NCBI GenBank assembly: GCA_937899245.1
Contig: CALDKB010000054.1
Coordinates: forward strand, 24,674 to 88,673
DNA from: an uncultured Bacteroidales bacterium
GTDB taxonomy: Bacteria; Bacteroidota; Bacteroidia; Bacteroidales; ML635J-15
DNA: 64,000 nt
Direction of reading: 5' to 3'
A program made the position numbers and the translations under genes. Shown piece after piece: positions 15,103-57,466 of the stretch; within the stretch, counting starts at the first letter, position 1; every line of letters starts with the position of its first letter. The notes beneath the pieces are model-generated. The model made no database searches. It had not been told where the DNA came from and saw only the letters and a list, made by a program, of their open reading frames with translations.

Positions 15103-15109
15103 AGATGTT

Positions 15110-15142
15110 TTGCAAATTTACAGTTCAACTGTAAATTTGCAA
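15110..15142 (+). terminator. perfect 14-bp hairpin downstream of pgk
   Basis: ttgcaaatttacag-ttcaa-ctgtaaatttgcaa, starting 8 nt after the stop. There is no strong T-run. Confidence 0.5.
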
Positions 15143-15201
15143 ATGACATTTTATCTGTTTTCTGATTAGAATTACAGATACCTTTTTTATAACTTATCCT
15201 A

Positions 15202-37542: not shown

Positions 37543-38991
37543 TTACTTGTCAATCTTGTATATGCAGTTTATCTTTATGCTGGTGTCCAATATCTTTTTT
37601 TCAACAAAGAATACCTTTGGAGAGTTGAACATAAGTTCATATTTCTTCTTGTGCAGATTTTTATTTGATAAACTCAACGCACCAAGATTTTCTTCGACAT
37701 GGACTACCATTATTTTCCCATACTTGCTTCCAAACCTGCAATGGCTGCAAGCCCCATAGTCGGCAAACATTATGTAATCAAAGTCCTTGTAGTCATATTG
37801 AATGCCAGTAGTGTCAAATATTGTTTCCATCGACGAAATAGGGGGATACTTTTCTCGTCTAAGCATTTCTGCATCATTAGGATCGTAATCTTTGATAGTA
37901 GATGCCGTGTAGTAATAATGGTATATGCCATCGTTCCCAAGCGAATCATCGATTGTTTCGTAGCTTGTCCCGTTGAAAAGAATTTGCTGCGACGACATGA
38001 GGTCATTATTGCCGTTTATAACCCCATTAATATTCTTGAACTTTTTCGACTTTACGGAATATACAAAGTCGATATGTCTTCCTGTAAACTCAGCCTCGTC
38101 TATGTGAACCATTATGTACAGCAAGTCGTTGCCTATGAAAGCAATCTTATCTATTTTGGGTTTGATAAAAATCTTATATTTATCCATAATCTGCAGATTA
38201 AGATATGCTTTCCCATAATTTTCGAGCAGAACCTTATCTGGCAATATGGAATCTAAAACTTGTTCAGTTAGTAGGATAGGCGGATAATCAATATTTACTG
38301 TATCAATAATATTAAGTTTACCATTCATTATATACACTTCTCCCTTTAATGGGTTCGACACAGCAATATAATCATCAGACTTGGCTATCATATTAATGCC
38401 ATAATGAGATAACAGTATGCCTTTGCCAATGTCAAACTTAACAGATTTTTCTGCCATACGGGTCTTCATGTTGAATATCCTTACTGTGATATTGTCATAC
38501 GGCTGTCCTTTACGGCTGTTGTTGTATGTGTTGGCGAGTAACACCTTATCGTTTGACTTTCCATCGAGTCTCGAGATATGGTTATATGTGTCCTTGAGTC
38601 TAATTTTTTTCTTAATCTTAAGTTCGTCCTCTTTTTTTTGTGTTCTATATATGAAAAACTGTGACATTATGAGGATTTCGCCATCAGGCATTTCCGCGCC
38701 ATAATACGAATCTTCATAAGCGCTTAACCCTTTTCTTGGCCTTTTGAAATATAGTTTTATGTCCTTTAATGTACTATCAATAACAAGCAAAAGTACTGTA
38801 TCTTCTGTTTTCTCTGAATACTGAAGCCTCATTGGAACAATTGTCTTGCTCGAGCTCTGAAATCTATTGTAATAATCATAATATTCAACACTTTGCCACT
38901 TTTCAAGTTCCAATTTGGGAGAAACTGAGAATGTTTGAGACAATAAATCCAAACAAATAAAAACAAATAAAAATAGTGCAGATGCCTTCAT
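37543..38991 (-). CDS. hypothetical secreted protein with a C-terminal CxxC motif (cassette B large protein)
   Basis: 482 aa with the signal peptide MKASALFLFVFICLDLLSQ. Tyr/Asn/Lys-rich and AT-rich in codon usage. GACSHC lies at nt 37738-37749 in the context FDYIMFADYGACSHCRF, paralleling SDYCIVTLYFQAGCVSCRM in the 564-aa neighbour. I recognise no family with certainty. Confidence 0.55.
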   Translation of the reverse strand: MKASALFLFVFICLDLLSQTFSVSPKLELEKWQSVEYYDYYNRFQSSSKTIVPMRLQYSEKTEDTVLLLVIDSTLKDIKLYFKRPRKGLSAYEDSYYGAEMPDGEILIMSQFFIYRTQKKEDELKIKKKIRLKDTYNHISRLDGKSNDKVLLANTYNNSRKGQPYDNITVRIFNMKTRMAEKSVKFDIGKGILLSHYGINMIAKSDDYIAVSNPLKGEVYIMNGKLNIIDTVNIDYPPILLTEQVLDSILPDKVLLENYGKAYLNLQIMDKYKIFIKPKIDKIAFIGNDLLYIMVHIDEAEFTGRHIDFVYSVKSKKFKNINGVINGNNDLMSSQQILFNGTSYETIDDSLGNDGIYHYYYTASTIKDYDPNDAEMLRREKYPPISSMETIFDTTGIQYDYKDFDYIMFADYGACSHCRFGSKYGKIMVVHVEENLGALSLSNKNLHKKKYELMFNSPKVFFVEKKILDTSIKINCIYKIDK

Positions 38992-39037: not shown

Positions 39038-39461
39038 CTACTTTTTAAAGAAAGCTGTTGCATTATACTCAACACCTTTTACTTCTGAACTGGCTTTATG
39101 GTAATCATTAAGTTCTTCATCATATACAAGTCTTGCATTCTTATAATAAATAGTTGCATCATTGTATTGTAGTGTTCCTGTTGTCATGTTATGCGTCTCA
39201 AGGTTCTCTTTAATTACATCTTCAACATAGTTCCATTCAAAACCAACAGTTCCTACTTTGGGGCAAGGTTCATTTCCTGGATCAAGGCACTTTTGTTCGG
39301 TAAGAATTCCGTCCTTATAATGTTGTATTATTTTGTCATAAGTTACACATTTCTGTTTTTTATTCCATTTGCCACCAGACTAAACTACTGTTAAAGGAGG
39401 AATGCCAGCAGATGCTACAACGTACATTAAAAAGCACAATGAATAACAATATTTTCTTCAT
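39038..39461 (-). pseudogene. small secreted protein gene (cassette B) disrupted by a frameshift and an in-frame TAG
   Basis: My own translation:
- The ATG at 39461 gives MKKILLFIVLF, then runs out of frame.
- The next frame reads LMYVVASAGIPPLTVV-TAG(39380-39382)-SGGKWNKKQKCVTYDKIIQHYKDGILTEQKCLDPGNEPCPKVGTVGFEWNY...ATAFFKK, with the stop at 39038-39040.
- Removing one T from the T5 run (39429-39433) restores a clean signal peptide. Confidence 0.5.
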
Positions 39462-39487
39462 TTTATTAAATATATTTAATTATTAAT

Positions 39488-39742
39488 ATGGGATAATTTA
39501 TTTCACAACTGCAACCTATCCCACAGTCGGTTGCAATCATTGCTGTATCCACTACACTAGGGATACATTTTTCCGCATATTTTGCCCTCATATTTTATTA
39601 TAAAATTTATAATTTGTGAGGGCAAACCTATCCGCAATGAAAGGATACTTCATGTAAAATTGACCTATATATATTCATATATAAACTTTTCATATTGTCG
39701 CTTAATAAATTTATGCTACAAGTTTAAGCAAACAAATTGAAA
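39488..39742 (-). repeat. conserved promoter/leader element, copy B
   Basis: By manual alignment it is near-identical to 42064-42314 at an offset of 2573 nt, with about 5 mismatches across the ~240 nt core from 39501. Confidence 0.9.
39706..39713 (-). promoter_or_regulatory. candidate -7 box (TAAATTTA) with TTTG 19 nt upstream, copy B
   Basis: TTTG (39733-39736), 19 nt, then TAAATTTA. One mismatch to TAnnTTTG. An alternative exact TAGGTTTG lies at 39623-39630. Confidence 0.3.
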
Positions 39743-39788
39743 AAAGCAAAATTATTTTTAACAACCGGCAATTTTATCCATATACAAG

Positions 39789-39817
39789 CAACGGCCACTC
39801 AATTGCAGCCGTTGCAG
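39789..39817. other. conserved hairpin ending cassette A
   Basis: gcaacggcc-actcaatt-gcagccgttgc is homologous to 37247-37275. Confidence 0.5.
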
Positions 39818-39921: not shown

Positions 39922-41616
39922 TTAATATATCTCCATCCGCAGTCCACAAGCATCAATCATGGTAGGTATTAAAGCGTCCTCAATATCTTGTGCATTATAC
40001 ACAGAGTCGAGTTCAACCTTGCCGCCCCTTACTATAGTCAGGCGCGGATTTACAAATGGTGAATTCATAGGAAACGAGGACACAATTGCTTCATCATCAA
40101 CGATAACATTATTAAACTTATCCAACCTCAGGTCATGGTCATTTAACTCATTGTCAATACGCGACTTGTAGCCTGTCAGAATAAGATACAAGGGCCTTTG
40201 TGATAAAATCTCCTGGTTTGCAGCTATTAATTCCAACACGGACATCCTACACGACACGCAACCTGCCTGGAAATACAATGTTACTATGCAATAGTCCGAT
40301 TCGTGATCAGGCACATTCCTATCAAAATAATTTATCAACGGATCTTGTCCATCAGTATAATACTGCGAAACTTTTTGTTCCTTATCGTTTCTAAAACCGT
40401 CAATCACGTAGCGCAAACTATCCACAGAAGTATTATGTCCAGACTTTTTTTGCTTTCGATACACATTTATGCGAATGGTATCCTGCGATACCGAACATGA
40501 GATTCGCCTACCATCGACCATTGACATAGAGACAAATGGCTTTACTGTTTCTCCAATATAATTGAAATCCCTATCGGCCATAACGACAGAGCAATACGTT
40601 TTTTCCATGCCGTTTAACCATATTGACGAATAATACATTCCATCAACCGAATCATAAACAATATTTCCATAACACGCAACCATGGCATCGGAAACATCAG
40701 TTTTATATTTTAGCGGAGGGATGGTATCAACCAGCTTTGACTTTAACGTATGTGGAATTAACTTGTCGTTTTTGTAATCCCACTCGAACACATCTGCCGA
40801 ATATGGGAACCTTATCACAGGCATACCATCAGGCGAAATGCAGAAATTGACATGATTGTGATGCCCGCCTTCCAGCACTGGATAATACATTTTATTCTTT
40901 AGGTACGGAAGTTTCTGCCTTGTGAAATAATACTTTTCGGTATTCAAATCATAATAGGCCAAGAACGGCTTCGAATTTTCAATCGAATCACAATTATTAT
41001 AGGAATATCGGCGAGGATAAAGAAAAACTATATTTCCGGCGCGTTTCATTTCACCGTCCAAAAAAGTATATGGCGGCAGCACGTCCGCTTCTGTCAGATC
41101 CAAACCATCGAAGTTTGACTTTTCGCAATTAAAATGATAGTGCTTTTTCACATTTCCCTCATAATCAACGAGCATAAATCTCAACGTGTCGCACGTAGCA
41201 TCATATGGCAGCTCCGTTACCTTGCATTCTCTATTGCTACAATTATGCACTTGCATATACGAATAATATGGTGCGTCATACAGAACCAATATGCTATCCT
41301 TGTTTATATACTCAAAAGTGCATAACGGCCGGTCAGCCAACAAGTTAATCTCATGATATGGTTCTTTCTTTTCAATATCGAAAAAAGTCAGCTTGTTGTT
41401 TTCCACGTATGCTATAAGCGTTTCAACACCATCTATGATGCAATACCGGAACTTGGGAATATATAATATTTTGTTCTGGATTATTGAATCATCAAGCGGA
41501 ATGTTTATGGTTCCTTCTTTATTAAAATCCCAATAGTACTCGTCGTTGCGACAACACGAACACAACATGCTAACTGAGAAAAGAAAAATTGCAGTTTTCA
41601 ACAAAAAATTACTCAT
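39922..41616 (-). CDS. hypothetical lipoprotein with a C-terminal thioredoxin-like CxxC domain (cassette A large protein)
   Basis: 564 aa with a lipobox-like SMLCSCC. The N-terminal ~430 aa is a beta-rich Tyr/Asp/Asn region, possibly propeller-like (inference only). The C-terminal ~130 aa fits a TlpA/thioredoxin pattern: IVTLYFQAGCVSC (nt 40249-40260) ...VIVDDEAIVSSFPMNSPFVNPRLTIVRGGKV. Confidence 0.6.
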   Translation of the reverse strand: MSNFLLKTAIFLFSVSMLCSCCRNDEYYWDFNKEGTINIPLDDSIIQNKILYIPKFRYCIIDGVETLIAYVENNKLTFFDIEKKEPYHEINLLADRPLCTFEYINKDSILVLYDAPYYSYMQVHNCSNRECKVTELPYDATCDTLRFMLVDYEGNVKKHYHFNCEKSNFDGLDLTEADVLPPYTFLDGEMKRAGNIVFLYPRRYSYNNCDSIENSKPFLAYYDLNTEKYYFTRQKLPYLKNKMYYPVLEGGHHNHVNFCISPDGMPVIRFPYSADVFEWDYKNDKLIPHTLKSKLVDTIPPLKYKTDVSDAMVACYGNIVYDSVDGMYYSSIWLNGMEKTYCSVVMADRDFNYIGETVKPFVSMSMVDGRRISCSVSQDTIRINVYRKQKKSGHNTSVDSLRYVIDGFRNDKEQKVSQYYTDGQDPLINYFDRNVPDHESDYCIVTLYFQAGCVSCRMSVLELIAANQEILSQRPLYLILTGYKSRIDNELNDHDLRLDKFNNVIVDDEAIVSSFPMNSPFVNPRLTIVRGGKVELDSVYNAQDIEDALIPTMIDACGLRMEIY

Positions 41617-41637: not shown

Positions 41638-42033
41638 TTAATCCATAATGTGAACTTGCTGAACTGCAATTAAATTGCAATTTTTATCATAATACATCTT
41701 TGTGTAACAGTTACGCACTGATAAGTCCGTAAGGTTACACCAACTGCCAACGACAACGCCATCTTCATTTTTAATTTCATGCCATGTGCCCCAAAGCACC
41801 TCGTCTTCACATTTCTTTTTGCTTCTTAATGTAACTTCAAATAAGGTTTCGTTTTCATTGTTAGCGTTTCTGTATAAAGAGCCACAATTTCCATCTTCAT
41901 CACAATAATTAGAATCAACAAGAACCCACATGGGAGCGACAAATTTAGAGATTTTCCCATCTTCCTTTTCGCAAGAAGCGAATATACATACACTTGCCAT
42001 TAATACGGCTATAATTAAAACTAATTTGTTCAT
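41638..42033 (-). CDS. small Cys-rich lipoprotein (cassette A small protein)
   Basis: 131 aa. The signal plus lipobox reads LMASVCIFASC. The mature part carries six Cys. The stop lies 21 nt upstream of the large-gene ATG. Confidence 0.6.
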   Translation of the reverse strand: MNKLVLIIAVLMASVCIFASCEKEDGKISKFVAPMWVLVDSNYCDEDGNCGSLYRNANNENETLFEVTLRSKKKCEDEVLWGTWHEIKNEDGVVVGSWCNLTDLSVRNCYTKMYYDKNCNLIAVQQVHIMD

Positions 42034-42063
42034 TTCTGTAAATTTTATTTGTTGTTATTTTCT

Positions 42064-42314
42064 TGGGATTTTGTTTCACAACTGCAACCTATCCCACAGT
42101 CGGTTGCAATCATTGCTGTATCCACTACACTAGGGATACATTTTTCCGCATATTTTGCCCTCATATTTTATTATAAAATTTATAATTTGTGAGGGCAAAC
42201 CTATCCGCAATGAAAGGATACTTCATGTAAAATTGACCTATATATATTCATATACAAACTGCTCATATCGTCGCTTAATAAATTTATGCTACAAGTTTAA
42301 GCAAACAAATTGGA
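42064..42314 (-). repeat. conserved promoter/leader element, copy A
   Basis: See copy B. It contains four inverted repeats at 42083-42108, 42118-42139, 42154-42199 and 42202-42220. Confidence 0.9.
42279..42286 (-). promoter_or_regulatory. candidate -7 box (TAAATTTA) with TTTG 19 nt upstream, copy A
   Basis: TTTG (42306-42309), 19 nt, then TAAATTTA. An alternative exact TAGGTTTG lies at 42196-42203. Confidence 0.3.
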
Positions 42315-42487
42315 ACAAACAAGAGATTTTTTGCAAAAAATGCCATGCGGAAAATTTATGCGGCGTCATTTTATTGAGAGTCTACCGAGAAAAAAGTTTT
42401 AGTCAAAAAATACCATCAAATAACTGTTGCATTTTTTCGTATTTTAAATTCTTTGACTACCTTTGTCCTGCTTTTTTTCGACAGAAA

Positions 42488-43231
42488 ATGAACTTGTTTG
42501 TTACTATAGGCAAATATTTTTCACTGATGGGTTCTGTATTCTCGAAACCTGTCAGCAGGAAGATATTTTTCCGTCGTCTGGTCGCGGAAATCGAACAGAT
42601 AGGTATCGATTCGGTCGGTATTGTCTGCATTGTGTCGGTGTTCATGGGGGCGGTGCTAACTATCCAGATGGGTATAAATTTCGAGTCGCCGATTATTCCG
42701 AGGTATATTATTGGCCTTAGCACGCGCGACTCTATGATTCTTGAATTTTCCAGTACTATCGTCTGCTTGATTCTTTCTGGCCGTGTTGGCTCCAACATCG
42801 CCTCTGAAATTGGTACAATGCGTATCACCGAACAGATTGATGCCTTGGAAATTATGGGTGTGAACAGCGCCAATTATTTGATACTTCCAAAGATAATTGC
42901 TGCGTTTGTTACTTTCCCATTCCTAGCGTTGCTTAGTATTATCCTTGGTATCGTTGGCGGATGTTTCATCGCATTCACTTCTCCTGATATTGTTACTGTT
43001 GCCGATTATATCTACGGATTACACTATGCGTTTGTGCCGTTCTATGTTACTTATACAGTAATAAAAATTGCTGTTTTCGCAATCCTTATTACCTCGATAT
43101 CTGCCTTTTTCGGCTATTATACCGAAGGCGGTGCACTCGAAGTCGGCAAGAGCAGTACAAAGGCGGTTGTATATAGCATTATCGCCGTATTGTTGTTCAA
43201 CTTAATATTAACTCAGGTTTTGCTCACATGA
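42488..43231 (+). CDS. mlaE: MlaE-family ABC transporter permease
   Basis: 247 aa from MNLFVTIGKYF (atg at 42488). Contains EQIGIDSVGIV, RVGSNIASEIGTMRITEQIDALEIMGVN. The ORF-track start at 42155 reads through the leader repeat and is spurious. Confidence 0.85.
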   Translation: MNLFVTIGKYFSLMGSVFSKPVSRKIFFRRLVAEIEQIGIDSVGIVCIVSVFMGAVLTIQMGINFESPIIPRYIIGLSTRDSMILEFSSTIVCLILSGRVGSNIASEIGTMRITEQIDALEIMGVNSANYLILPKIIAAFVTFPFLALLSIILGIVGGCFIAFTSPDIVTVADYIYGLHYAFVPFYVTYTVIKIAVFAILITSISAFFGYYTEGGALEVGKSSTKAVVYSIIAVLLFNLILTQVLLT

Positions 43232-45624: not shown

Positions 45625-48600
45625 TTACTGTTCCTTCTTTTCGTCATAGTTCTCGATGATATTCTGAATCGATTTGCGTAGGGTCTGTTGTAGCGAAATT
45701 CTGCCCAATCCCGACTTGTTGACAAGGTTAATGGATTGAGCTATAGCTTTCTCGTCCTTGTACAACGGTTTTACAAGTCTGAATTCAAAGTCGTCGGATT
45801 CCTCGACTAGTTCGCCCTCTTCTTCGTCGTTCTTTTTCTTTTTCCCCTTGTTTTCCTTTGGCTCTTTAGTTTGGACATTTATTCCAAGTGGAATTGGTAG
45901 GCCTTTTGGCTCGAGTACCGAAATGTGGAAGAAATACTTGAAGTCGAAGTCCATTTTGCCGCTGACGGCAACTTTGTATTTGTCCATTGACAAAGTGAAT
46001 GGATAAACGCTGAGGATGTTATTGTCGATGGTGAATTCAACCGACATGTTGTCGATGACATTTTTTGTCTGCTTCTTGAACAGAAGGTATTTGGCTATTG
46101 TGGTGAATGTTTCGCCATCGAGAAGGACAAGGTCCTTTCCGTTGATGTGGCATGCGGTCTGCAACGTCGATAGAACTGGTTCCATCTCATTGTCGAGGTC
46201 GGCTATTGCCGACAGTTCGCAGTCGAGCTTTCCCTCAAACGAACTGAGCATTGGCAATATGGAGTCAATCATAGGAACAGCAGTCAAAAGGTTTTCCACA
46301 GTAACATTAGTTCCGAAAAGATCAAGTCCGACTTTCGCTTTTTCAAGGTTGTCGCATTGGTATGTAGCGCTAAGTTTCAGGTCGCCGATATTGCTGCTTG
46401 TACGCAAATCCTTAATGGAGAGGGTGCTGTTTTGGGCAGTTATTTCCCCATTGAAGTCGTTCATCTTTAGTCCGGCAAATTTTATGGTGTCCATTTTTAC
46501 AGTTATGCCGCAGTTTAAGTTTGCCGGGACTACAATAAGCTCCATAGGTACCGTGTCAAGATCGATTTCGGAAGAAGATGTGTCGGTGGCTTCGTTTTCC
46601 TCGTCTGTAATATTTTTTTCTTCGCTATATGCCAAATCGATGAATTCCTTCATTTTGCCCATCCTTTCGGTATATATTTCGCTGAGGTCACGTTTTGTGT
46701 AGGTCTTGCGTATGGAATCGATGATCTGTGCTTTGACAGAGTCGCTAACTTCAACATGGTTGATGTTTATGCTTTTTTGCTGCATTTTATCTATGCGCTC
46801 AAGTGCGGCCTTCCTAGCAACGTCGTCCTTCAGTTTTTCTTGTTCACCGATATAGTTGGCATATAAAAGTTCGTTAAGGTCCAAGTTCCTTGATGTAATT
46901 TCAATGTTTCCGCTAAGTGTTTTGTCGCGAAGCAGAGCTCGGCGTACATTTTCGATCTTTCCGTTTAGTCTGAGACCCGACTTTCCAACTCGCATGAAGA
47001 AATTGTTAAGCTGGATGGTATCGTCGGTAAAGGTAATGTCAAATTTGCGGGCAGCCGTTCGCAAATTGAAATAAGGTGACATGTATCTGGCTGTCTTGGC
47101 ATATATCTTGCCGTCGAAAGTAAATTTCTTCAGCGCAGACTCGGCATCTGTCACACTGTTGCATAATGTAAGTAGCGAGTCCATGTCAATCGGGGTTCTG
47201 CTTGTGGGATCAATTTCCACACGTTTGCCGTCAACTCTCATGAACTTACGAATTCTGGGACGGCCGTTCATTTCTATTCTAGTGGAATCGAGGAATGCTC
47301 CCATTGTAGGTTCGTAGTATGTGATTGAGTCGAGGTTCAGCGTTGCTTTGAGTGCAGGAATAAGGGCGTCGGCCTCGTCTGGTCTTACCGACATTGAAAT
47401 CCTTCCGCTCTTTCCCGAGACGAACATTGTGTCGGCAACAATTGCCTGCATGCCGTTTAGACGTCCAGAAACACGCATCTGCGGTACTTCGTTGACTGGT
47501 TCGTCAACGTTGGCATTAAGGTTAAGTCTCGATATCGTCGCCTGTATTGTGCGTGGCATTGTTATCTTTAAGGTGTCGACAACAACTTTTGCATTGGTCA
47601 AGTGGGTTTGTCCGGTTCGTCTTGATTGCTTGGAATTCATGCCGACTTCTGCACTTGCATTTTCACCGTAAGCAAAGAATTTCTGCGATGGGATTCTCAA
47701 CATAATGCGGTCGATGTCGATATTTCCAAGCATGTATATTTTTGTGAAGTTGATTTTCATAAGGTCGCTTAGTGAGAAGCGTGCTTCGAAGTCGGACGAA
47801 AGGTTCCCCTTGTATATCAAGTCGTCGATAGGGAAGAGGCTTGATATGTAATCGAGGTTCAGGTCGCAATTAAGCTTAGCGTCGATATACGGGTCGTTGA
47901 GAATGTTGCTGGCCTTGCCCTTTAATTTAATGTAGGTTTCTCCGGCGGAAGCATTTAGTTCCGAAATATTGATGTACGATTTGCGTTTGTTTTCGGAATT
48001 GTAGCTTAAGTCGGCATCAAGATTTAGTTTTGCGGTGGCGTTCATGTCTTTGGCGACAGCTTCTATGTCGCTAAGCGACAGTTTCGCTTCGATGTTTGGG
48101 AAAGTGTCGTTTTTGTATCGGCCTTGTGCCTTGCCGCAGAAATTTAATGCGCCAGAAATTTTGTAGTCTTTGATTCCGCTGATCAGGCTCTCGGGAATAA
48201 AGTTGAGAACATTGTCGATTCGTGGAATTGATATGTTTGCGTTCAGGTCGGTATTCCATGATGAATCTGTCATGTATTCGGCTGTGCCTGAAACTTTTAC
48301 GAAAATGTCTGTGCTCGTGATGTCCAAAGTGTCGATATCGAATTTGTTAAACTCGTCGTCGCATTTTACTTTCAGGGCAAAATCAAGAGGAATGTCGTTA
48401 AATGACATCGAAGAATCTCCAAATTCGTTTAGTAAAAGTTTAAGGCTTGAATTTAAATCGTATGAGCTGTCGTTGATAAATGCCGATGCTTTCAGTTCTG
48501 TGTCATCGACAATTATTTTTGTATTTGAAGAGCTGTCGCAGAATTCTGTGCTAATTTTGCCAAAATTGGTTGTCAGCTCGTAGTTTCCATCGTTTATATT

Positions 48601-56592: not shown

Positions 56593-57277
56593 GGTATATG
56601 TCTTCCATGATTTCAGATATTTTCAATGATTTTCTATCGGTACGCAATTGCATTGTGTTTTCGTTTAAATATGCCTTTTTGTTCACTTCAACCATTAGTG
56701 AATGGTAAGAGAATTCGCATAGTGGTGATATTGAATTGGAATATGGATTGTTGATCCCGACTTTATATCCATGTTTTTCAAATTTGTTGTAGACCATGTC
56801 AACAATGTTGTCGCCAGGGTATGACCAGTCTTTGTTGAACCCTATGCAAATGTCCGCCTCGCTTATATTGCTGGGGAATGAGTGGCAATCGATTATGATG
56901 GAATCGGCAGACAACGTTTTTATAAGTTTGTCTTGGTGTTGTTTCCATATTCCTAGCAATGTTTTTTTTACTGAAGTCGGTACTTCTCGATGAAACCCTG
57001 CAAAGTCGCTGTATATTATTCCTTGTCCGATTTTTTCCATTGGATCGTCCCACAGGCGTTCTGCATCAACAATGAACCGCGAATATGGGAATCGTACGAC
57101 CTTAAGGTTTGAAACAGAGTTGAATGCAAACACAAAGTCGGTGTACCAGTCGGTTAGCTTGATTACGGATTCGTTGATAAATTTTGGGTTGTTTGGCCAG
57201 AAACTAAGATTTTTGTCGGCAATTCCTTCTATTGAGGAATGAGGTACGTGAAGTACAATATATTTAATGTTGTTCAT
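56576..57277 (-). CDS. N-formylglutamate amidohydrolase (FGase, PF05013)-like protein
   Basis: 233 aa. Contains YIVLHVPHSS..IP, FVDAERL and IIIDCHSF, consistent with the metal-dependent FGase fold. Confidence 0.6.
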   Translation of the reverse strand: MNNIKYIVLHVPHSSIEGIADKNLSFWPNNPKFINESVIKLTDWYTDFVFAFNSVSNLKVVRFPYSRFIVDAERLWDDPMEKIGQGIIYSDFAGFHREVPTSVKKTLLGIWKQHQDKLIKTLSADSIIIDCHSFPSNISEADICIGFNKDWSYPGDNIVDMVYNKFEKHGYKVGINNPYSNSISPLCEFSYHSLMVEVNKKAYLNENTMQLRTDRKSLKISEIMEDIYHELLD

Positions 57278-57466
57278 ATCGTTATGTTTTTTGTTTCAAT
57301 AAACACTCATCGTAAAAACCACCGTGGCATAACAACTCGGTTGGTGCACAATTGTGCTCTTGATGGATGTTGCAAAGATACGAAAGATTTCGTGTTATTT
57401 TTTGATTTGGCAGAATTTTTCGAAACAGGTTGCTTGTGTGGATATTTCATTGTACCTTTACAAAAA

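Follow-up and report, generated by a model that had tools for sequence, protein, structure and literature searches.

Background

Post-transcriptional control is poorly charted in Bacteroidota, a phylum in which translation initiation does not rely on Shine-Dalgarno pairing. Promoters of the primary sigma factor in Bacteroidetes consist of a -33 TTTG and a -7 TAnnTTTG element, located 19-21 nt apart. Some promoters in Bacteroides are invertible, in which case the promoter lies between inverted repeats of 15-30 bp, with a recombinase nearby. Mobile promoters are typically short and do not include a structured downstream part of 200 nt. In the ompA type of Escherichia coli, the mRNAs of abundant envelope proteins carry stabilising hairpins in the 5' UTR, and these hairpins are found at the extreme 5' end. 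Leader-peptide attenuation has been reported for the tetQ-rteA-rteB operon of Bacteroides (PMC3809561). The FopS/GibS RNAs of Bacteroides are independent, terminated sRNAs, about 65-70 nt in length, with as many as 14-15 copies and conservation among Bacteroides species (PMC11697453).

Here we analyze a locus of an uncultured Bacteroidales bacterium within a stretch of 64,000 nt, which we call the window. The locus contains a real, duplicated and unusually structured segment that extends from a promoter-like site to a start codon.

A duplicated segment upstream of two adjacent operons

The segment occurs twice on the minus strand of the window, as direct repeats (repeat family D1, aligned over 263 nt) that are 2573 bp apart and that precede two adjacent operons. 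Copy A (42070..42332) consists of a promoter-like region and a leader and is located 5' of operon A, while copy B (39497..39759) is located 5' of operon B. Identity between the two copies is 95% across the 263 nt and rises to 100% between about 42254 and 42070 (~185 nt). Copy A lies in a minus-strand spacer that is flanked on one side by a divergent MlaE-like gene and on the other by the gene of a 131-aa lipoprotein, whose ATG is at 42033. This anatomy and the duplication are directly observed. Judged by its sequence, the unit is best read as a lineage-specific promoter-plus-leader cassette of 263 bp, and not as a leader that is private to one gene. A perfect 16-nt palindrome (ATTTTTTGCAAAAAAT, 42326-42341) is present at the upstream edge of copy A, in the spacer that is shared with the divergent MlaE-like gene.

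The boundaries of the cassette have neither terminal inverted repeats nor target-site duplications and, given also that there are 2 copies in 64 kb, a MITE or selfish repeat was rejected. An invertible promoter of the Bacteroides kind was likewise rejected, because the candidate promoter P1 (see below) has no flanking inverted repeats of this kind and the two copies have the same orientation. Reading through the ORF translations of 28-52 kb, without systematic annotation, also revealed no ORF resembling a recombinase. The absence of terminal inverted repeats and target-site duplications also speaks against one explanation of the cassette as a whole, namely that it has no dedicated function and is recently copied or gene-converted intergenic DNA, or a decayed selfish repeat with palindromes, in which only the promoter matters. 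The restriction to one species and 2 copies is in its favor. We consider this explanation rather unlikely, and return to it where further evidence applies.

Both operons are encoded on the minus strand. The first gene of operon A (41638..42033) encodes the 131-aa protein, a Cys-rich lipoprotein whose family is conserved in three related loci (L062, L063 and L064). The second gene (39922..41616) encodes a 564-aa protein with a DUF4221 beta-propeller and a C-terminal alpha/beta domain that contains a CVSC motif. DUF4221 was assigned by Pfam (1.5e-5), and the best PDB match of the structure model (pLDDT 75) is 3s9j, a DUF4221 protein (E 8.6e-16). The 564-aa protein has only 14 homologues at E ≤ 1e-5 among 5.8 billion proteins, and a literature search found no papers mentioning DUF4221. 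The combination of small lipoprotein and DUF4221 protein is conserved in the three loci, where the respective identities are 61%/66% (L062), 39%/49% (L063) and 35%/43% (L064). As a two-gene module, it joins a Cys-rich lipoprotein with the motif W-[VI]-L-[VI]-D..YCDE.GNCG.LY.NA.NE to a DUF4221 beta-propeller with a C-terminal CxxC alpha/beta domain. This module (39922-41616, minus strand, in the window; also in L063 and L064) is often arranged in tandem pairs.

A terminator-like hairpin (39788..39815, minus strand) closes operon A about 30 nt before copy B, and therefore copy B would have to restart transcription. The first gene of operon B (39038..39461) is a pseudogene in this assembly, broken by the loss of 2 nt at 39441/39440 and by a TAG at 39382-39380, while an intact 141-aa gene is found in the Logan contigs L060 and L069, which are from other samples. 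The second gene (37543..38991) encodes a 482-aa protein that is not similar to the 564-aa protein. Comparison of the proteins of the two operons detected no similarity, either between those of 131 and 141 aa (E 2.2) or between those of 564 and 482 aa (E 0.5).

Predicted structure of the leader

A preliminary description of the locus had proposed that copy A contains four inverted repeats, H1 to H4, that these fold into four consecutive hairpins and that all of them recur in copy B. The four repeats proved exact. Because they fall into the stretch of 100% identity, they are the same in copy B, where H1 is at 39629-39647, H2 at 39581-39626, H3 at 39545-39566 and H4 at 39510-39535, again on the minus strand. 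As hairpins, H2, H3 and H4 are robust in the ensemble that was calculated for the full 269-nt leader, from which all probabilities given here are taken, whereas H1 is not.

H1 (42202..42220; TATCC-N9-GGATA) is a weak inverted repeat with an ensemble probability of about 0; at -2.6 kcal/mol alone, it does not fold above chance. H2 (42154..42199) has a 10-bp perfect stem (TTTGCCCTCA/TGAGGGCAAA) and a 26-nt A/T loop, and its probability is 0.73-1.0. Its loop is internally palindromic, as previously described, although the inner 8+8 palindrome is 2 bp off the center of the outer stem. H3 (42118..42139; -7.3 kcal/mol, probability 0.89) consists of GTATCC-N10-GGATAC and 3 additional inner pairs. H4 (42078..42113; probability 0.89-0.95) has a 7-bp core, TGCAACC/GGTTGCA, at 42083-42108, which can be extended to 12 bp via three G-U pairs on the sense strand only.

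Comparison with shuffled controls supported the predicted stability of the leader. H2 alone has a predicted energy of -15.2 kcal/mol (z -4.5), and none of 200 shuffles was as stable. H3 and H4 are modest when taken singly (4 of 200 shuffles as stable for each), while H3 plus H4 (72 nt) reach -24.3 kcal/mol (z -4.25; 0 of 200). The 150 nt that span H1 to H4 have an energy of -47.5 kcal/mol (z -4.5). In comparison with real sequence, the leader copies are in the top 0.02-0.05% of 4258 GC-corrected 150-nt windows, taken from both strands of the 64 kb, and the two copies together hold most of the ten best places in this ranking. That the leader is the most structured region in 64 kb is an observation that counts against a lack of dedicated function. 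Outside of the leaders, the most stable GC-corrected 150-nt window is 47941-48090 on the plus strand (-53.8 kcal/mol, z -3.6), which is antisense to the gene of a 1233-aa AsmA/TamB-like protein.

The 150-nt region folds equally well when read as the plus strand (-46.5 kcal/mol, z -6.65) or as single-stranded DNA. Since both strands fold equally, the inverted repeats are plain Watson-Crick palindromes that are silent as to which strand is functional and whether RNA or DNA is involved.

H1 and H3 have the same arms, TATCC-N9-GGATA and TATCC-N10-GGATA, and so an alternative fold is available in which H1 and H3 exchange partners around H2, each 5' arm pairing with the 3' arm of the other. This alternative pairing and the local hairpins are predicted to be nearly isoenergetic (-33.0 against -34.2 kcal/mol). 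The alternative is the minimum free energy structure of the 150-nt fragment, but has a probability of only 0.10 in the full leader.

The region around the main start codon (ATG 42033) is accessible, with a mean unpaired probability of 0.63, and is unmasked in all predicted structures. A 10-nt complementarity between the H2 loop and the main start region has p 0.004 in copy A and p 0.73 in copy B; a conserved interaction between these regions was rejected because it is significant in copy A only. We also rejected an intrinsic terminator or attenuator, given that the sequences 3' of H2 (AAAAUAUG), H3 (AGCAAUG) and H4 (GUUGUGAAAC) contain no U tract. In agreement, a terminator scan of the cassette found none, and H2 lacks a U tract on either strand.

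Candidate promoters and possible control at the DNA level

The preliminary description had named two possible promoters. One of these, P1 (42279..42309, minus strand), is present as it was given there, i.e., TTTG-N19-TAAATTTA. Its -33 TTTG is at 42309-42306 and, after a 19-nt spacer, its -7 box is at 42286-42279; the equivalent in copy B is at 39706-39736 (minus strand). The -7 box matches 7 of the 8 consensus positions, with a final A instead of G. Both the TTTG and TAAATTTA are invariant in 4 sequence variants, while the 19-nt spacer has 3 substitutions, and this pattern of invariant motifs beside a varying spacer may lend weak support to P1.

The other candidate, P2, is a -7 box in the 5' arm of H2 with the sequence TAGGTTTG (42196..42203, minus strand). 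The exact match to TAnnTTTG (8/8 positions) is confirmed, but it carries no statistical weight. The motif occurs at chance frequency, with 73 instances in the 64-kb window versus 62 expected, and thus a single exact match in a 310-nt spacer is uninformative. Moreover, no TTTG is found 17-22 nt upstream of TAGGTTTG.

These last observations weaken an alternative in which the cassette acts at the level of DNA. It comprises two proposals, that P2 is a real promoter, in which TAGGTTTG is the -7 box and transcription starts near 42192, such that the hairpins need never form in RNA, and that, with H1 overlapping the promoter core, H3 and the start-straddling H2 palindrome are operators for a dimeric or looping transcription factor. 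We regard the first as improbable and are similarly doubtful of the second. The repeats themselves would suit operators, as their stems are perfect palindromes that are as stable on the opposite strand and as DNA. The pattern TATCC-N7-12-GGATA is limited to the two cassettes (4 hits in the window versus 0.22 expected), GGATAGGTT occurs twice within each cassette copy, and each copy has five GGATA/TATCC motifs. The centers of H1 and H3 are about 82.5 bp apart, which is roughly eight helical turns, yet the spacers of these two repeats are unequal (9 versus 10 nt). H2 is also an unusual candidate for a single dyad-symmetric operator, in that 26 bp separate its arms and the inner palindrome has a different center. 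A fully conserved stretch of 100 nt (see below) covers exactly H1, the -7 match and H2; on the other hand, a change from GGATAC to GGATGC in a variant strain alters the motif while it keeps a U-G pair in RNA, and there is no regulator gene nearby.

Two further promoter-like sequences were observed. A match to a sigma-70-like promoter (TTGCCC-17-TATAAT, 10/12 positions) lies inside H2, at 42170-42198 and 39597-39625 on the minus strand. It would act in E. coli, if cloned there, but is probably of no relevance to Bacteroidota. Elsewhere, positions 15109-15143 form a perfect palindrome of 17+17 nt with TTTG-N19-TAAATTTG on both strands, and may serve as an operator or as a Bacteroidetes promoter that is active in both directions. 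This locus also ranks with the most stable 150-nt windows.

Upstream open reading frames

Two short candidate ORFs within the leader of copy A were read from the sequence. The first, uORF1 (42201..42266, minus strand), has 21 codons and translates to MSSLYMNIYRSILHEVSFHCG. Its TAG stop codon (42203-42201) is the TAG of TAGGTTTG and is 1 nt before the 5' arm of H2, so that the footprint of a ribosome on uORF1 would overlap this arm, as is characteristic of leader-peptide attenuators. The second, which we call the mini-ORF (42045..42164, minus strand; 39 codons, MRAKYAEKCIPSVVDTAMIATDCGIGCSCETKSQENNNK), spans H3 and H4 and has its stop codon 11 nt ahead of the main ATG. Its counterpart in copy B (39466-39591, minus strand) has 41 codons and stops 4 nt before the ATG. 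The earlier proposal that H2 buries the start codon of the mini-ORF (42164-42162) agrees with the structure, since the U and G of this AUG are inside the 3' arm of H2 and one base is outside.

This geometry, which can be read directly from the sequence, suggests a relay of ribosomes or an encoded micropeptide, an explanation that we judge quite unlikely. In the relay, a ribosome that finishes uORF1 at its stop codon would unzip the 5' arm of H2 and expose the AUG of the mini-ORF, a step to which we give little credence. Translation of the mini-ORF would then melt H3 and H4 and terminate at a distance of 11 nt in copy A, or 4 nt in copy B, from the main ATG, thereby coupling translation of the main gene to that of the upstream ORF, and we think it similarly doubtful that this occurs. 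The AUG of the mini-ORF is in an A-rich context, and its Cys-rich peptide is encoded upstream of a Cys-rich lipoprotein and a CxxC protein. The frame is open in all four variants: in the variant L001, two indels of -1 and -2 add up to -3, and the 3-nt indel that sets the sequence apart from L062 likewise does not disrupt it. However, the AUG of uORF1 would be separated from the P1 start by only about 9 nt, the main start site needs no relay to become accessible, and the complementarity between the H2 loop and start region that is found in copy A is absent in copy B.

The properties of the mini-ORF as a coding sequence also argue against the relay. No relatives outside of the species were found among 5.8 billion or 1.84 billion proteins, and the only matches belong to a cluster of the same species (P0001). 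Its codon-usage score is -0.04, and 32% of spurious ORFs of similar length score at least as high; the window has 186 ORFs of 35-60 codons that start with ATG. Three of 4 point changes are non-synonymous. Finally, the tail beyond codon 30 differs between the copies, which are read in different frames there. Based on the lack of homologues beyond the species, the spurious-like codon usage and the non-synonymous changes, we rejected the hypothesis that the mini-ORF encodes a conserved small protein. A protein search with the ORF antisense to the leader gave no relatives.

A translational attenuator of the leader-peptide type does not agree with the predicted structure in its defining feature. 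In such an attenuator, the start codon of the regulated gene is sequestered, whereas the main ATG here is predicted to be exposed, as described above.

Variation within the species

Logan contigs break at the repeat, and the available variants are therefore partial; there are four (L001, L060, L071 and L068/L069). The contig that carries the cassette was also detected in a small number of Logan and ENA samples. In the promoter part, copies A and B differ in ways that are shared across strains, which implies that the duplication is older than the divergence of the strains.

The strain in SRR21151010 shows how the differences are distributed. The 58-nt promoter part has 4 differences between copies A and B, and the adjoining 100 nt, which run from TATATGAATATATATAGG to H2 and include H1 and the -7 match, have none; about 9 sites or indels then distinguish the copies over a further 66 nt. 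In every strain seen, the central 100 nt with H1 and H2 are identical between copies, while the flanks differ by 7-14%. A clean stretch of 100 nt has a probability of about 0.001 under a uniform spread of differences, a value that must be read with the caveat that the stretch was chosen post hoc. The conserved core is directly observed. Being unlikely under a uniform spread, it would reflect either constraint or a hot spot of gene conversion.

In the window's own strain, the part with H3 and H4 has also been homogenized between the copies. The length of the identity tract thus varies between strains, as is expected for ongoing gene conversion, and to this extent the data fit a cassette that has no dedicated function. 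What such a history explains less well is that the divergence of A and B predates the split of the strains, and yet the central 100 nt are identical in every strain.

The one variant strain with changes in the structured part is L001. Its linker between H2 and H3 has the -1 and -2 indels, which fall into two A-runs, as well as two substitutions, and there are two more substitutions in the linker between H3 and H4. Within the stems, an A to G change in the 3' arm of H3 (GGATAC to GGATGC) keeps a U-G pair, and a G to U change in H4 breaks the loop-closing pair. No covariation or compensatory change was found, in a comparison that involves two distinct sequence variants and one variant strain. 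The changes in L001 would neither demonstrate nor contradict covariation. The lack of covariation is among the points in favor of an absence of function.

Relatives and database searches

The operons in L063, L064 and L065 have a perfect promoter (TTTG-N19/20-TA(tc/ta)TTTG) located 20-45 nt before the ATG, and a short UTR. No homologue of the leader was detected in these three loci with blastn or nhmmer. That the leader is missing from these orthologous operons is directly observed, and it leads to two conclusions, that the cassette was acquired in the present lineage and placed at two sites, and that it is not an ancient, conserved riboswitch-like leader of this operon family. It can be argued from the same observation that relatives manage without the cassette, which favors a lack of function. 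On the other side of this question is the fact that some 200 nt of added sequence have been retained before both operons.

For closer relatives of the 564-aa gene, the Logan contigs end at the repeat. With 66% identity, L062 (Logan SRR11487841) is the closest orthologue of operon A; its contig breaks 36 nt before the ATG, which suggests that this genome, too, has a repeated leader. The tail in question (L062 1-39) resembles that of copy B, not that of copy A, and has an in-frame 3-nt indel.

The preliminary description did not recognize any known class of riboswitch or leader, and database searches bear this out. No Rfam family matches the leader at the gathering or E-value threshold; the best scores in 41900-42500 are 12-22 bits (E >= 0.37), and all are for models of eukaryotic miRNAs or snoRNAs. 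A scan of the window with gathering thresholds detected only a tRNA and a SAM-I/IV riboswitch, both elsewhere. The SAM-I/IV riboswitch aptamer (57277-57371, minus strand) matches the full-length model with 53.2 bits, compared to a gathering score of 41.1.

Pattern searches gave the same outcome. In 185,579 species genomes of GTDB, a pattern for the H2 stem had 57 matches, all of which are chance palindromes or terminators according to blastn and, for those in Bacteroidales, also to inspection by eye. In JGI metagenomes, patterns derived from the peptides had 145 matches, none of which was confirmed, and a DNA pattern for H1+H2 had 0. No relative of the cassette was found in IMG/VR or in phage and plasmid collections. 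The cassette is thus known from one species, in 2 copies, and matches no known RNA family. A conserved, riboswitch-like aptamer was rejected, because there are no homologues outside of the species and no compensatory change in the single variant.

Proposed function of the cassette

The best-supported statement on the cassette is structural: it consists of a shared putative promoter and a long, exceptionally structured leader, was acquired in this lineage, and has an invariant core formed by H1 and H2. Our best explanation of these properties, which we hold tentatively and regard as quite possible, is that a lineage-specific, shared cassette acts as a common cis control of both operons at the level of mRNA.

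According to this explanation, the cassette would supply a promoter of the Bacteroidetes type (P1) and, from it, a 5' UTR of about 240 nt. The leader RNA would fold into three robust hairpins, of which H2 is predicted to be much stronger than H4, and H4 stronger than H3, and these would be followed by an A-rich, unstructured translation start region. Both operons would then most likely be under one common, cis-acting control. The functional core would be H2 together with the 50 nt before it. H2 would keep the upstream AUG closed, and is most plausibly where a factor would bind or process the RNA, or where ribosomes would open the structure. Because the hairpins leave the main start unmasked, control is more likely to involve mRNA stability, transcript elongation or translation coupled to the uORFs than occlusion of the start site. 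It is important to emphasize that we infer the transcription start, the role of RNA rather than DNA as the active form, and any regulatory effect.

A role at the level of mRNA is favored by the position of the leader between a plausible promoter and a start codon. It is also favored by three features of the repeats, namely that the palindromes of H2 are not concentric, that the spacers of H1 and H3 are unequal, and that the G-U extension of H4 is available on the sense strand; these would point slightly to RNA. Against this reading are the lack of covariation, the equally good fold of the antisense strand, the occurrence in one species and two copies, the accessible main start and the imperfect -7 box of P1. 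In addition, gene conversion would be sufficient to explain perfect identity between the copies.

A more elaborate possibility is that the cassette is an undescribed portable module. It would comprise a promoter and a bistable leader, in which H1 and H3 exchange arms around H2, and two nested uORFs that pass ribosomes on, via H2, H3 and H4, to the main start, and it would have been copied before two unrelated surface-protein operons, placing them under one signal. We consider this combination very unlikely. If true, it would represent a new class of translational or RNA-based control in Bacteroidota. If, instead, the cassette is only a gene-converted duplicate of a promoter, it is an ordinary feature of a repeat-prone locus and has no wider consequence. 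By taking the place of the short UTR that relatives have, a leader added before two unrelated operons would offer a natural experiment on how such modules are acquired and spread.

At present, the cassette is a well-documented candidate and no more. It is real and well delimited, belongs to no known family and is confined to one uncultured species.

Comparison with known systems

The cassette shares features with several described systems. Like mobile promoters or gene-converted upstream regions of paralogs, it places a near-identical candidate promoter segment before unrelated genes, and its identity tract depends on the strain. However, it differs from mobile promoters by its structured downstream part of 200 nt, and no signatures of mobility were found. 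Like the FopS/GibS RNAs (PMC11697453), it is repeated in a Bacteroidales genome and would lie behind a canonical promoter. In contrast to these sRNAs, it has no terminator and continues into operons, and its 2 known copies are from one species.

With leader-peptide attenuation of the ermC and cat type, and of tetQ-rteA-rteB (PMC3809561), the cassette has in common that a short uORF ends beside a stable hairpin whose 3' arm contains a start codon. Leader-peptide attenuators have a constitutively transcribed leader with several hairpins, a feature that the cassette would share, given that we infer its transcription. The AUG that is hidden in the cassette is that of a second small ORF, however, while the start of the regulated gene is free. 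No stalling motif or inducer is known for the cassette, none of the genes downstream is a resistance gene, and its leader has no sequence similarity to any leader in Rfam.

The resemblance to ompA is that of a long 5' UTR with stable stem-loops before the unstructured start of a lipoprotein or surface-protein operon. The position differs, in that H2 would start about 75 nt from the P1 start. By analogy, then, the element would be most like the leader-peptide or hairpin attenuators, or the hairpins that stabilize mRNAs from within the 5' UTR.
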